39,037 nucleotides of DNA from the IMG/VR virus record IMGVR_UViG_2778261428_000004, positions 1 through 39,037 of that record; one strand, given 5' to 3'. How positions within the stretch are numbered: position 1 is the stretch's first letter; every line of letters begins with the position of its first letter. The notes below the pieces were generated by a model. It worked only from the letters and a program-made list of their open reading frames with translations. It was not told the origin of the DNA and did no database searches. The DNA comes from a virus. Lineage: Duplodnaviria > Heunggongvirae > Uroviricota > Caudoviricetes. Below are positions 29,389 to 33,544 of this stretch, one piece after another. Both the position numbers and the translations under genes were made by a program.

Positions 29389-29757
29389 ATGGTTGGAACC
29401 GCTATAGCAAGCTTTTTTGGGATGTTGGCAATCTCGACAATTTACGGCTTAGCGCATGCTTTTATTGCGAAATCTCTATCAGAAAAAATAAGCCAGGCTT
29501 GGGCGCATAGATCAGCTCGTTTCATGATTCTGGTGATCATAGCAATACAAGGGATATCTGCATTTATCCTCTATGGATCAAGCTTATACCTATTGTATCA
29601 AGGCGCGACATTTACGCCTTACACCAGTGATTACGGAACTCTATACGATGGTAGTGAAGACATCACTGTGGCTTGGATCGTCTTTGGTTTATCTATGGCC
29701 GTGTCTGTTGTAGCAGACATCATTAAGGTAATTCTCGTCTTAACCTTCGCTGACTAA
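29389..29757 (+). CDS. Small integral membrane protein (about 3 TM helices) co-oriented with and 18 bp downstream of cI
   Basis: AAGGGGG SD before ATG 29389; three hydrophobic segments. Occupies the lambda rexA/rexB position between cI and OL/pL; no sequence recognised. Confidence 0.6.
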   Translation: MVGTAIASFFGMLAISTIYGLAHAFIAKSLSEKISQAWAHRSARFMILVIIAIQGISAFILYGSSLYLLYQGATFTPYTSDYGTLYDGSEDITVAWIVFGLSMAVSVVADIIKVILVLTFAD

Positions 29758-29886
29758 CCTATAATCCCGGCAGCAATAGCTATCGGGATCCACTTCACAT
29801 ATCCCGCATAAAAAGCACTGAACAAGCAGACACCGAAAAAATAAATATCCTTTGTATTCATTTGCTTATCATTATTTCATCAAAAA

Positions 29887-29935
29887 TAAATACCTTGGGT
29901 ATTTACACAATAAAATACCTACAGTATTCTTTAGC
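29887..29935 (+). promoter_or_regulatory. Left operator/promoter region OL/pL
   Basis: Operators AAATACCTTGGGTATTT and AATACCTACAGTATTC share half-sites with OR; -35 TTTACA and -10 TATTCT are embedded. Confidence 0.6.
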
Positions 29936-29976
29936 CATCAGCAGGACGCTGGAAGCCAAACGGAACAGATTGGCAG

Positions 29977-30017
29977 GCTCTTTAACATTGATGGGATTGT
30001 CCCGCCGAAATGCGGGA
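29977..30017 (+). promoter_or_regulatory. nutL (boxA GCTCTTTAACA plus boxB hairpin CCCGC-CGAAAT-GCGGG)
   Basis: Same boxA/boxB sequences as nutR, about 110 nt upstream of N. Confidence 0.65.
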
Positions 30018-30124
30018 ACCAAAGAGTAGTTGGCTTTGGGGTGACGTGAAGTGCAGCTGCACGACGGCAACCGGAAGATAAGCACCCGGCGCGTCACCGC
30101 CAAAGTCAATCATCGGAGGTCAAC

Positions 30125-30430
30125 ATGACAGTAGTCATTACATATCTGGCTGACGATAACGCCAGAAATCGCCGCAGAGCACGCAGACAGGCTCAACGTG
30201 AACAGGCAATGCAAGAACAGCGACTGGCGCGAAAGATTGCGCTAAAGCTCTCTGGTTGCGTCAGAGCAGACAAAGCAGCATCACTCGGAAGCCTTCGCTG
30301 CAAGAAGGCAGAAGAAGTCGAGCGTAAACAGAACCGTATTTACTACCGCAAGCCACGCAGTGAAATGGGTGTTACTTGTGTTGGTCGCCAGAAAATGAAA
30401 TTAGGCAGCAAACCACTGTATGAGGGGTGA
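30125..30430 (+). CDS. N: Antitermination protein N-like (arginine-rich motif)
   Basis: N-terminal ARM DDNARNRRRARRQAQREQ; position between pL/nutL and the early-left genes. Confidence 0.8.
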   Translation: MTVVITYLADDNARNRRRARRQAQREQAMQEQRLARKIALKLSGCVRADKAASLGSLRCKKAEEVERKQNRIYYRKPRSEMGVTCVGRQKMKLGSKPLYEG

Positions 30431-30433
30431 TCT

Positions 30434-30685
30434 ATGGAATTTCATGAAAGTGCGATTTATGATTTCCGCGCTAACGCAAATTCAGTAAAACCACAGCCAA
30501 TTGCAGTTCTTTTTAAAACAATGGGAGCGTGGGCTGTTTTATGCTTCGCCGCTGATGACACTGACGCAAGAATGGCAATAGGCCAAGAGATGGAGATGGA
30601 CCCGACAAACGATGAATTCATAATTTATGGCGCTCCATCTAATTACTTACTTGATACCTGCAACATTTACAACAAGGCTGCCTGA
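30434..30685 (+). CDS. Hypothetical early-left protein (83 aa)
   Basis: ATG with GAGGGG SD; directly follows N. Confidence 0.5.
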   Translation: MEFHESAIYDFRANANSVKPQPIAVLFKTMGAWAVLCFAADDTDARMAIGQEMEMDPTNDEFIIYGAPSNYLLDTCNIYNKAA

Positions 30686-30724
30686 TGGTGGCCTTTATTT
30701 TTGGCACTAACAACAGAGGCTAAC

Positions 30725-31021
30725 ATGGAATTTAAAGGTACTGAAGGTAAGTGGGAAATAATGATGGATGGCGATGAGATTAAAATCATCCAGGCAGACT
30801 CACTTGAAAATGGCGCAGGCTGGCGTTCGTATATTGCAATCTGTGAGGAAGTTCAATGTATTGAAGATGCCAATCTAATAGCGGCAGCACCTGAACTTCT
30901 CGAAGCACTTCAGTTATTACTTAAGCAATCCAAAAATAGAACAACGACAACATATCCAGAATGGTATGGAGCTGTTAATAAAGGTCTTGCAGCAATCAGA
31001 AAAGCTCTTGGGGATAAGTAA
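30725..31021 (+). CDS. Hypothetical early-left protein (98 aa from ATG 30725)
   Basis: AGAGG SD before ATG 30725; stop overlaps the next start (TAATG). Confidence 0.5.
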   Translation: MEFKGTEGKWEIMMDGDEIKIIQADSLENGAGWRSYIAICEEVQCIEDANLIAAAPELLEALQLLLKQSKNRTTTTYPEWYGAVNKGLAAIRKALGDK

Positions 31022-31209
31022 TGAAAGTAAAAATAACTGCTTCTAATACCAGTTTTGTTAGTGTTGGTGATATTACAGAAGTAATAACAAACCATGATGG
31101 AACCAAAGTTATGTGGTCTGATTTTTGTAAAAGATATGAGCGAGTTAGTTGGTGTAAACTCGTATGGGGAGTCGAATACGAAGAATTACCTGAAATGCAT
31201 GACGAATAA
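31021..31209 (+). CDS. Hypothetical early-left protein (62 aa)
   Basis: Translationally coupled to the upstream gene. Confidence 0.45.
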   Translation: MKVKITASNTSFVSVGDITEVITNHDGTKVMWSDFCKRYERVSWCKLVWGVEYEELPEMHDE

Positions 31210-31214
31210 GCACT

Positions 31215-31242
31215 GTGTATTCATTCCAACGAGTGAATACAC
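31215..31242 (+). repeat. 12-bp-stem inverted repeat (GTGTATTCATTC / GAGTGAATACAC)
   Basis: Seen directly, immediately after the 62-aa ORF stop; no T-tract follows. Confidence 0.5.
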
Positions 31243-31304
31243 GGAGCAATGTCGCTCGTAACTAAACAGGAGCCGACTTGTTCTGATTATTGGAAATCTT
31301 CTTT

Positions 31305-31330
31305 GCCCTCCAGTGTGAGGGCGATTTTTT
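31305..31330 (+). terminator. Rho-independent terminator within early-left operon (tL-like)
   Basis: GCCCTC-CAGTGT-GAGGGC followed by GATTTTTTAT. Confidence 0.6.
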
Positions 31331-31350
31331 ATCTATGAGGATATGAATAG

Positions 31351-31719
31351 ATGTCAAACATCAAAAAATACATCATTGATTACGACTGGAAAGCGTCAAT
31401 AGAAATTGAAATCGACCATGACGTAATGACAGAGGAAAAACTTCACCAGATTAATAATTTCTGGTCAGACTCTGAATACCGACTCAATAAACACGGCGCT
31501 GTATTAAATGCTGTATTAATCATGCTGGCGCAACATGCTCTGCTTATAGCAATTTCGAAAGACTTAAATGCATATGGTGTTGTTTGTGAGTTCGACTGGG
31601 ATGATGGAAATGGTCAGGAAGGATGGCCTCCAATGGATGGTAGTGAAGGAATAAGAATTACCGATATCGATACATCAGGAATATTTGATTCAGATGATAT
31701 GACTATCAAAGCCGCCTGA
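31351..31719 (+). CDS. Hypothetical strongly acidic protein (122 aa)
   Basis: GAGGA SD; many Asp/Glu, especially in the C-terminal third (DWDDGNGQEGWPPMDGSEG...DSDDMT). Confidence 0.55.
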   Translation: MSNIKKYIIDYDWKASIEIEIDHDVMTEEKLHQINNFWSDSEYRLNKHGAVLNAVLIMLAQHALLIAISKDLNAYGVVCEFDWDDGNGQEGWPPMDGSEGIRITDIDTSGIFDSDDMTIKAA

Positions 31720-31794
31720 GCGCGGCTTTACCGCATACCAATAATGCTTCACGAGAGGCATTTTCGTTATGCAATCAAATATAAGGAGTTACCC

Positions 31795-31929
31795 ATGATG
31801 CACTTTCAGCTCGCGGGTAGCGGCGTCATGTCCGCTTTCTACCCGCACGAATCTGAATTATCACGCCGAGTTAAACAATTAATCAGAGCAGCAAAGAAAC
31901 AACTGGAGGCGTTATGCGCAATGAAATAG
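31795..31929 (+). CDS. cIII: CIII-like protein (putative FtsH inhibitor)
   Basis: From ATG 31795 (AAGGAG SD): MMHFQLAGSG...ESELSRRVKQLIRAAKKQ resembles the conserved amphipathic core of lambda/P22 CIII. Confidence 0.5.
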   Translation: MMHFQLAGSGVMSAFYPHESELSRRVKQLIRAAKKQLEALCAMK

Positions 31930-32066
31930 CCATTAATCACCAGATGCTTCGTGCTGCACAGAACAAAGCAGTAATAGCCAGATTTATTGGTGATTCCAAA
32001 ATGTGGCTTGAAGCAAATAAAGCGATGAAATCAGCTATCAACCTTCCGTGGTATCGCAGGAAATGA
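31914..32066 (+). CDS. kil: Kil-like protein (putative host division inhibitor)
   Basis: 50-aa ORF not in the track; contains FIGDSKMW, reminiscent of lambda Kil as recalled; position right after cIII. Confidence 0.4.
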   Translation: MRNEIAINHQMLRAAQNKAVIARFIGDSKMWLEANKAMKSAINLPWYRRK

Positions 32067-32233
32067 GTTTTACAGATAACTGGTCAGACGAAGGATTCAT
32101 TCGTCAGATGAAAGAATTAATCGGTAACGAAGGAGATATTCATGTCACTTGCAACCACAGTGAAGGAGAGCAAGTTACAGAGGCGCATGTACACGCAGCA
32201 GGCGTTAATGTATCGCCAAAAGGGAGATCGTGA
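32063..32233 (+). CDS. Hypothetical protein (56 aa from ATG 32063)
   Basis: Start overlaps the upstream stop (ATGA). Confidence 0.4.
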   Translation: MSFTDNWSDEGFIRQMKELIGNEGDIHVTCNHSEGEQVTEAHVHAAGVNVSPKGRS

Positions 32234-32320
32234 AGGTGTTCGCGTCTTTTTAAATGCGGCAAAGACCGAAGTATTAAATCAGCGTTATTTCCTTGGTCCA
32301 TGTCCATTCTGAGGTGAATT

Positions 32321-33028
32321 ATGGATTTGAATAAATTCGATGAGCCATTCAGCCCTGAAGATATTGAATGGCGAATACAGCAAAGTGGTAAAACACGCGA
32401 TGGCAAAGTGTGGGCTATGGTGCTGGCTTATGTCACGAACAGGGCAATCATGAAACGCCTGGACGATGTTTGTGGCAAAGCAGGATGGCGTAATGAATAC
32501 CGCGATATTCCCAACAACGGCGGCGTTGAATGCGGCATATCAATAAAGATTGATTCCGAATGGGTAACCAAATGGGATGCTGCTGAAAACACGCAGGTAG
32601 AAGCCGTCAAAGGTGGTCGTTCCGGTGCAATGAAGCGTGCTGCCGTTCAGTGGGGAATCGGTCGGTATCTGTATAACCTTGAGGAAGGTTTCGCACAAAC
32701 ATCTCTCGATAAAAAGCAGGGATGGCACAGGGCAAAACTGAAAGATGGGACAGGATTTTACTGGCTCCCTCCATCGCTGCCGGGATGGGCAATACCAGCA
32801 TCAGATAACAAACCATCACCAGAAAATACCAACCAGAAATCTCCATCGGTTGACTGCGAACAAATCCTGAAAGACTTCAGCGATTATGCGTCAACAGAAA
32901 CTGACAAGAAAAAACTCATCGAGCGTTATCAGCATGACTGGCAATTAATGGCTGGCAATGAGGATGCGCAGGCTAAATGCGTTCAGGTAATGAACATCAG
33001 AGTTAACGAACTAAAACAGGCGGCATAA
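32321..33028 (+). CDS. Rad52/Sak-family single-strand annealing protein
   Basis: KRAAVQWGIGRYLY motif characteristic of the Rad52/Sak family; GAGGTG SD. Confidence 0.7.
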   Translation: MDLNKFDEPFSPEDIEWRIQQSGKTRDGKVWAMVLAYVTNRAIMKRLDDVCGKAGWRNEYRDIPNNGGVECGISIKIDSEWVTKWDAAENTQVEAVKGGRSGAMKRAAVQWGIGRYLYNLEEGFAQTSLDKKQGWHRAKLKDGTGFYWLPPSLPGWAIPASDNKPSPENTNQKSPSVDCEQILKDFSDYASTETDKKKLIERYQHDWQLMAGNEDAQAKCVQVMNIRVNELKQAA

Positions 33029-33544
33029 ATGGCAAGCAGAGGCGTAAATAAGGTGATCATTATTGGTCGCCTTGGGCATGATCCAGAAATCAGATATTCA
33101 CCATCAGGAACGGCATTTGCAAACCTTACAGTTGCTACGTCAGAACAATGGCGTGATAAGCAAACTGGAGAGCAAAAGGAGCAGACGGAGTGGCACCGTG
33201 TGGTAATGAGCGGGAAACTGGCAGAAATTGCCAGCGAATATCTGCGAAAAGGCTCTGAGGTTTATCTTGAAGGCAAATTGCGGACAAGAAAATGGCAGGA
33301 TCAAAGCGGACAGGATCGGTTCACTACCGAAGTCATAGTGGGCGTTGGTGGAACCATGCAAATGCTTGGTGGCAAGCAAGGAGGCAATGAACAGTCTTCA
33401 CCTCAGCGAAATGACGGTCAGCAACAAAGACAACAACATCAGCAGCAAGGGAATCACAGCGAACCACCTATGGATTTTGACGACGATATCCCCTTTGCAC
33501 CAGTAACTCTCCCTTTCCCTCGTCACGCTATTCACGCAATTTAA
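33029..33544 (+). CDS. ssb: Single-stranded DNA-binding protein SSB with 15-aa extension beyond the canonical DDDIPF tail
   Basis: [23 protein letters not shown]...TEWHRVV...[12 protein letters not shown] closely parallels E. coli SSB; the ORF continues [15 protein letters not shown]. Confidence 0.9.

Follow-up and report, generated by a model that had tools for sequence, protein, structure and literature searches.

The present work concerns a small acidic gene in a 39,037-nucleotide (nt) stretch of tailed-phage DNA (IMG/VR record IMGVR_UViG_2778261428_000004; hereafter, the window), which is, with near certainty, ea10 of a lambdoid phage close to mEpX2 and HZ41. We tentatively read its product, Ea10, as an acidic decoy or inhibitor that acts stoichiometrically on a nucleic-acid-binding protein of the host or of the phage. 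This reading fits best because it brings together the abundance of the protein, a floating bulk charge, one conserved loop motif, dispensability in laboratory hosts and a location in early host-takeover regions. The feature as such is already known, as lambda ea10 and as a member of DUF2528, and the window contributes one more near-identical copy. What is added here is the breadth of the family, its conserved acidity and loop motif, a confident structural model without structural relatives, and grounds against the 'ssDNA-binding' (single-stranded DNA-binding) label that the protein has carried. The gene and its ribosome-binding site are as follows:

31351-31719, plus strand: ea10 coding sequence, ATG to TGA, 122 amino acids (aa) plus stop; orthologue of lambda Ea10 and member of DUF2528.
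31337-31341, plus strand: Shine-Dalgarno sequence GAGGA, 9 nt before the ea10 ATG, read from the sequence and kept in lambda, phage 21 and mEpX2.

The open reading frame (ORF) lies exactly where a preliminary description of the window had placed it, running from ATG to TGA behind its GAGGA Shine-Dalgarno sequence; that it is lambda Ea10, a known gene of the DUF2528 family, had been missed. Pfam PF10800 (DUF2528) matches Ea10 over profile positions 1-104 of 104 with E=4.1e-46 and 156.2 bits (the gathering threshold being 22 bits), and PHROG 646, annotated as 'unknown function', matches over the full length (E=8e-70). The ea10 gene of the window is 97.6% identical at the nucleotide level to lambda ea10 (V00638) and 99.7% to that of mEpX2, while the protein equals lambda Ea10 (UniProt P68658) at 119 of 122 residues, the changes being S50A, S70K and N84D. 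All parts of the DUF2528 signature are present, i.e. the EIDH(D) strand, the FW pair in helix 1, R44 and the EGWPxMDGSxGI loop, and they are conserved in the sets of 51 and 128 homologues described below. At least 202 phage records carry ea10 at 95% identity or more, and across 36 close alleles the ratio of non-synonymous to synonymous polymorphism (pN/pS) was 0.20: ea10 is under purifying selection.

In lambda, Ea10 is an early protein made in abundance, and it was at one time taken for the Kil product (PMC3961180). The gene was non-essential in a genome-wide CRISPR interference (CRISPRi) screen that names it 'DUF2528 family protein' (PMC10695390), an IS10 insertion in ea10 is viable (PMC2327257), and prophages with a (sieB-ea10)<>cat replacement are viable and used as working strains (PMC3961180). 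A single two-hybrid interaction of Ea10 is mentioned in a further article (PMC3224144), and in 2024 the role of the protein was called 'not fully understood'. Literature searches on ea10 combined with defence, ral or ssDNA, and on DUF2528, retrieved neither a functional study nor a link to defence.

With 15 Asp and 8 Glu residues (18.9%) and nine Lys/Arg, Ea10 has a net charge of -14 and an isoelectric point (pI) of 4.31, both computed from the translation, and its charge per residue is the most negative among the 65 ORFs of 80 aa or longer that the two strands of the window contain. The preliminary description had called the protein highly acidic and had proposed to compute its pI and charge distribution. 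It is indeed the most acidic ORF of the window, yet the wording holds in a relative sense only, given that the T7 protein Ocr has about twice its charge density. The charge is polarised along the chain. Per 20-residue segment it amounts to about -4 to -5 at residues 6-35 and to about -3 to -6 at residues 66-120, and the helical middle (31-65) is neutral. The acidic C-terminal patch noted earlier is thus real, and an acidic N-terminal beta-hairpin exists besides.

This acidity is shared by the family. A first homologue search yielded 117 matches, all DUF2528 and mostly from Enterobacterales. A family profile built from 51 full-length members and run against 1.84 billion representatives (E at most 1e-3) extended DUF2528 to at least 573 clusters at 50% identity, nearly all of them stand-alone proteins of 110-140 aa; fusion partners were sought among the longer members (152-217 aa), which hold DUF2528 alone and whose extensions match nothing. 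Net charge ranged from -8 to -20 and pI from 4.05 to 4.79 in the 51 homologues, and in a set of 128 members (24-70% identity to the query, median 37%) the net charge was -12.7 +/- 3.2, with a pI below 5 in 98%. A conserved negative charge, a general trait of DNA mimics as a class, is accordingly found in the Ea10 family. Among the acidic positions themselves, only D22, E90 and D96 are individually conserved in these 128 members, and among the basic ones only K5, R44 and K/R102. The specific residues that are retained comprise Y7, D22, F37, W38, R44, F81 and the loop E90-G-W-P-x-M-D96-G-S98-x-G100-I, a non-acidic element and the most conserved one of the family. Because net charge is conserved but few acidic positions are, the alignment suggests that the family is selected for bulk charge plus one specific site.

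The AlphaFold2 model of Ea10, computed from a 51-sequence alignment, is confident (mean predicted local distance difference test score, pLDDT, 95.2; predicted TM score, pTM, 0.87) and describes a compact alpha/beta domain, in which a beta-hairpin (4-22) and four helices (28-79) precede the conserved loop (80-100); after the loop come a third strand (101-107) and a short segment at the C-terminus. A Foldseek search of this model against the PDB returned nothing better than E=1.7, and sequence searches against solved structures, with the protein or with the 51-sequence profile, returned nothing at E up to 10. Neither did PADLOC or NCBIfam searches give a match. In BFVD, one unnamed viral protein was found (E=1e-5, 23% identity), which is probably a remote member of the family. 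The outcome that had been named beforehand as refuting a DNA mimic or anti-defence factor, namely that the structure would confidently match some unrelated enzyme fold, was not obtained, as the model matches no solved structure. As modelled, then, Ea10 has a fold without a detectable solved relative, one that is neither an OB fold nor Ocr- or ArdA-like. Two candidate features were rejected. A fold match to Acb4 was noise (E=3, TM score 0.15), and a transmembrane helix at residues 50-68 was dismissed, since the Kyte-Doolittle value of 2.19 is reached in the lambda subfamily, the family median being 1.16 with only 12% of members above 1.6. Because this segment is membrane-like only in the lambda subfamily, we read it as a buried core helix.

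The pattern of conservation would also suit a small enzyme or a small-molecule binder (a sponge), in which D22, R44, E90, D96 and S98, together with the Gly-rich loop, form a site, e.g. for a nucleotide-derived signal. The strongest conservation indeed falls on specific polar residues and glycines and not on the acidic surface, a stand-alone domain of 110-140 aa is of a size like that of known phage sponges, and the fold is one without characterised relatives. However, there is no similarity to any known enzyme or sponge fold and no recognisable catalytic motif, and the conserved bulk negative charge would stay unexplained and would disfavour anionic nucleotides. We consider this explanation unlikely.

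To describe the genomic surroundings of the family, we relied on look-ups of distant members; a scan of viral contigs gave only loci of 98-100% identity, which are uninformative for context. In Mu-like prophages (Salmonella, Oceanobacter, Serratia and a metagenome), the DUF2528 gene belongs to the early operon, where it comes after MuA/MuB and close to Mu Gam, GemA and Mor. Isolated phages with the gene are BcepMu, where it is gp03 between an HU-like protein and GemA, and phiE255. It directly follows N in a lambdoid prophage of Rosenbergiella, overlaps the end of a family-A DNA polymerase gene in one metagenomic contig (with a FEN exonuclease and an ATP ligase near), and lies amid many small ORFs next to a CCA-adding enzyme in another. 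A scan of one genome per species added Pantoea, Buttiauxella, Yersinia, Rheinheimera, Pseudoalteromonas, Gallionella, Desulfuromonas and a metagenome-assembled genome of Calditrichota. When 120 neighbour ORFs at 16 loci were assigned to Pfam families, MuB-like AAA_22 (6), GemA (5), Mor (4) and rve (4) predominated, together with Mu Gam, DUF3164 and S24 repressors with 3 each. In lambda and in Mu-like phages, DUF2528 genes often share an operon with Gam-type nuclease inhibitors. As an early accessory gene, DUF2528 is widespread in temperate phages, and it also occurs in at least two contigs that look lytic, the two metagenomic ones just described.

Such neighbourhoods raise the alternative that Ea10 is an accessory factor, which binds or modulates a protein of DNA metabolism (a polymerase, an annealase, an SSB partner, with SSB denoting single-stranded DNA-binding protein, or a transposition component) and not one of defence. 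In its favour are the positions directly after the family-A polymerase near the FEN exonuclease and ligase, after MuA/MuB and, in BcepMu, beside the HU-like protein and GemA, as well as upstream of recombination modules in lambdoid phages; besides, the small RNA LPR1, encoded next to ea10, manipulates host DnaN. We nevertheless hold this to be rather unlikely, for ea10 is dispensable for lambda growth, as the (sieB-ea10)<>cat working strains illustrate, and co-location in an early operon is weak evidence because such regions mix many functions. That recombineering plasmids devoid of ea10 are fully functional also counts against an accessory role.

Certain further occurrences of the gene say little about its spread. 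Copies of lambda ea10 at ~98% identity were seen in assemblies of unrelated organisms, among them Pseudoxanthomonas, Enterococcus, Bradyrhizobium, Paenibacillus, Kitasatospora, Shewanella and Neobacillus, on contigs with ~1x coverage that are often ~48.5 kb long; these are almost certainly contamination with lambda control DNA and represent no real distribution. In a plasmid database, each of the 19 matches shared at least 95% identity with lambda Ea10; 17 lay on non-mobilizable records, several of them of phage-genome size. The 48.5-kb entries from Stenotrophomonas and Paenibacillus look like the same contamination artefact.

To return to the decoy or inhibitor that we favour, Ea10, being a small, abundant, soluble, single-domain protein, would act stoichiometrically. 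It would bind a basic, nucleic-acid-binding protein of the host (from among its nucleases, repair, nucleoid or defence proteins) or possibly of the phage, and thereby neutralise or redirect it. In broad terms, the idea follows the line of thought of the preliminary description. The E90-G-W-P-x-M-D96-G-S98-x-G-I loop, with D22 and R44, would confer specificity, and the negative charge found throughout the family would attract the target over a long range. The binding of a target, the identity of that target and the inhibitory effect are what we infer here, and several points weigh against them. D22, R44, E90, D96 and S98 would fit an enzyme or small-ligand site just as well. Close alleles show purifying rather than diversifying selection, unlike many arms-race proteins, and no DUF2528 homologue was found in the anti-defence islands of conjugative-plasmid leading regions. 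Moreover, type I and type II restriction-modification, BREX and many cloned defence systems remain effective against lambda with ea10. Since lambda carrying ea10 is still restricted, any target of Ea10 must be narrower than that of Ocr.

With greater reserve, we suggest a more specific form of this proposal. DUF2528/Ea10 might constitute a structurally novel and hitherto unrecognised class of acidic decoys, encoded by phages of Gamma-, Beta- and Deltaproteobacteria (lambdoid, Mu-like and some lytic ones), which would neutralise one conserved DNA- or RNA-binding protein of the host (a nuclease, a repair factor or a defence sensor) via the EGWPxMDGSxGI loop. Ea10 is among the few abundant early proteins of the best-studied phage to lack a function, and its ssDNA-binding label is probably wrong; if the decoy class is true, one of lambda's last abundant orphan early proteins would gain a function. 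Confirmation of a decoy would also explain the presence of the gene in more than 200 sequenced E. coli phage records, dozens of them from Shiga-toxin-converting phages, and in Mu-like phages across Proteobacteria, and it would introduce a new fold among phage counter-host proteins.

The historical label needs separate consideration. Many database records still call the protein a 'putative ssDNA-binding protein', whereas RefSeq now lists the lambda protein as 'hypothetical' or 'DUF2528'. The label presumably derives from the old map name 'ssb', and a search for primary evidence behind it traced none. That Ea10 should bind ssDNA appears extremely improbable to us. The model has three strands and four helices and is not an OB barrel, there is no structural match to SSBs, the net charge is -14 with K5, R44 and K/R102 as the only conserved basic residues, and the phage already encodes a canonical SSB at 33029-33544 (plus strand). 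Hence OB-fold SSBs (PF00436) and Ea10 share the database label only, Ea10 having neither an OB fold nor a basic surface nor a Pfam SSB match, and hhalign gave a probability of 1% for Ea10 against the phage's own SSB.

There is, at the level of short motifs, one resemblance between the two proteins: the Ea10 loop EGWPPMDGSEGI (31618-31653, residues 90-101) has PPMD and the distance from there to Ile in common with the SSB C-terminus (33455-33496, residues 143-156). This is probably chance, if a curious one in view of the old name 'ssb'. Mimicry of the SSB C-terminal tip was considered and rejected on the basis of the 1% hhalign probability and of the C-terminal segment of Ea10, whose alternation of hydrophobic and acidic residues is typical of packed structure. 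Recognition of an SSB tip requires a free C-terminal Phe. The SSB of the phage itself carries a 15-aa extension past the canonical C-terminal tip DFDDDIPF. The SSB of mEpX2 has the same extension and that of HZ41 aligns over the full 171 aa (98.8%), while, among the remaining phage SSBs listed, those whose alignment extends to the C-terminus stop at residue 156. As the tip must normally be a free C-terminus to recruit partners, the extension is odd.

Around ea10, the window contains the following elements:

31210-31335, plus strand: conserved leader, homologue of the lambda ral-ea10 spacer (LPR1/PreS plus tL2a), from alignment with lambda, phage 21 and mEpX2.
31708-31729, plus strand: perfect 8-bp hairpin (AAAGCCGC / GCGGCTTT) whose loop contains the TGA stop codon of ea10, read from the sequence.
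31795-31929, plus strand: cIII (FtsH protease inhibitor), immediate downstream neighbour of ea10; Pfam PF08134, E=2e-30; PHROG 550.
31914-32066, plus strand: kil (cell-division inhibitor), second downstream neighbour; Pfam PF06301, E=1.7e-20; PHROG 2055, E=1e-35.

Together with an N-like antiterminator gene upstream on the same strand, these Pfam matches confirm the early-left position just upstream of cIII and Kil that had been assigned to the gene at the outset. The gene order is that of lambda (N ... tL2a/LPR1 - ea10 - cIII - kil), and past kil follow a 56-aa ORF, a Rad52-like annealase, the SSB and an exonuclease. Ea10 might also be thought to modulate the lysis-lysogeny decision by acting with cIII on the FtsH/HflKC system, an idea to which we attach very little probability.

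The 140 nt before ea10 (31210-31350) are almost invariant among the window, lambda, phage 21 and mEpX2. In lambda, LPR1/PreS is encoded in the ral-ea10 spacer; this small RNA is bound by Hfq, up-regulates host dnaN and has the terminator tL2a as its 3' end (bioRxiv 10.1101/2024.10.31.621285). A terminator scan of the window located the corresponding terminator-like hairpin at 31303-31324, followed by the T-run TTTTTTAT, together spanning 31303-31331. An Rfam scan of 29500-33000 gave no match at E up to 0.1. Because the tL2a terminator precedes ea10, expression of the gene is expected to need N antitermination, and read-through into ea10 would, judging from the sequence, be N-dependent. The gene would thus be transcribed from pL after N-dependent read-through of tL2a/LPR1, within a non-essential delayed-early block ea10-cIII-kil.

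Compared with lambda, the window shares the Ea10 sequence, the LPR1/tL2a leader, the ribosome-binding site and the downstream cIII-kil pair. It differs in lacking ral, in place of which an unrelated acidic 83-aa ORF follows N, in a two-ORF insert (30701-31209) that parts the ral-type terminator from LPR1, and in its recombination module, which is of the Rad52-like/SSB/exonuclease type where lambda has gam-bet-exo. The sequence of the LPR1/PreS small RNA is kept although ral is absent. The 83-aa ORF (30434-30685, plus strand), directly after N at the position of lambda ral, has a pI of 4.24 and a net charge of -7, is assigned to PHROG 2471 (unknown function) and gave no Pfam match; in its last codons and its stop-codon hairpin it is similar to the 3' end of lambda ral. 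This ORF could be a further candidate for early interference with the host.

Stop-codon hairpins similar to that of ea10 end this 83-aa ORF (30674-30695) and, in lambda, ral. They follow the pattern AAAGC[C/T]GCC-TGA-...GGC...TTT, and the encoded C-termini, that of lambda ral included, all read ...KAA. From their sequence, these hairpins may be shared elements for termination or RNA processing, at which mosaic modules may also be joined by recombination. The insert at 30701-31209 (plus strand) comprises two ORFs of unknown function, of 98/106 aa (PHROG 1273) and 62 aa (PHROG 10407). It separates the ral-type 3' end and terminator (30669-30717, 90% identical to lambda) from LPR1, the spacing between the ral-type terminator and LPR1 being 9 nt in lambda and ~490 nt in the window, and it looks like a moron-type insertion at a mosaic joint. 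Farther upstream, a very hydrophobic ORF of 122 aa (29389-29757, plus strand) lies between the cI-like repressor and the pL/N region, the place of rexA/rexB in lambda; its equivalent in mEpX2 is annotated as hypothetical, and it may be a membrane exclusion protein expressed from the prophage.

The known systems with which Ea10 invites comparison are, in the first place, T7 Ocr (gp0.3) and ArdA, which like Ea10 are small, acidic, early and abundant proteins with conserved acidity, and on whose logic the preliminary description had modelled its candidate DNA mimic or anti-defence factor. A strict mimic of this type would imitate the phosphate backbone of B-DNA and block type I restriction-modification, BREX or similar systems. 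A pI of 4.3 and a net charge of -14 are in keeping with this, as are the conservation of acidity across the family, the early expression and abundance of the protein and, in lambda, the location of ea10 one gene from ral (restriction alleviation) and three from gam. However, Ocr contains 29.1% Asp/Glu and has a net charge of -28 over 117 aa (-0.239 per residue), about double the charge density of Ea10 (18.9%; -0.115 per residue). Ocr (PF08684) gave no Pfam match to Ea10 at E up to 1 and an hhalign probability of 0.2%, ArdA (PF07275) neither a Pfam nor a structural match, and no sequence, profile or fold similarity was found to any other solved DNA mimic. Ocr is an elongated, all-helical dimer shaped as bent B-DNA, which the Ea10 model is not, and the most conserved element of the Ea10 family is a non-acidic Gly/Trp/Pro loop. 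Lambda carrying ea10, moreover, is the textbook example of a phage restricted by EcoKI, and BREX and many cloned systems act against it as well. On account of the halved charge density, the missing fold and profile similarity, and the restriction of lambda with ea10 by EcoKI and BREX, we regard strict Ocr/ArdA-type mimicry as very unlikely.

The decoy or inhibitor proposed here would have its parallels elsewhere. Gam of lambda and Mu, Ugi, barstar and the colicin immunity proteins resemble Ea10, as we envisage it, in being small acidic single domains that combine negative charge with one specific interface, and in lambda and Mu-like phages gam genes are neighbours of DUF2528 genes. The parallel with Gam, Ugi, barstar and the immunity proteins is one of analogy only, as Ea10 has neither homology nor a fold match to any solved structure. 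By that analogy, Ea10 would stand closer to barstar, the colicin immunity proteins, Ugi or Gam, with their pairing of charge and a specific interface, than to the rigid imitation of B-DNA by Ocr.
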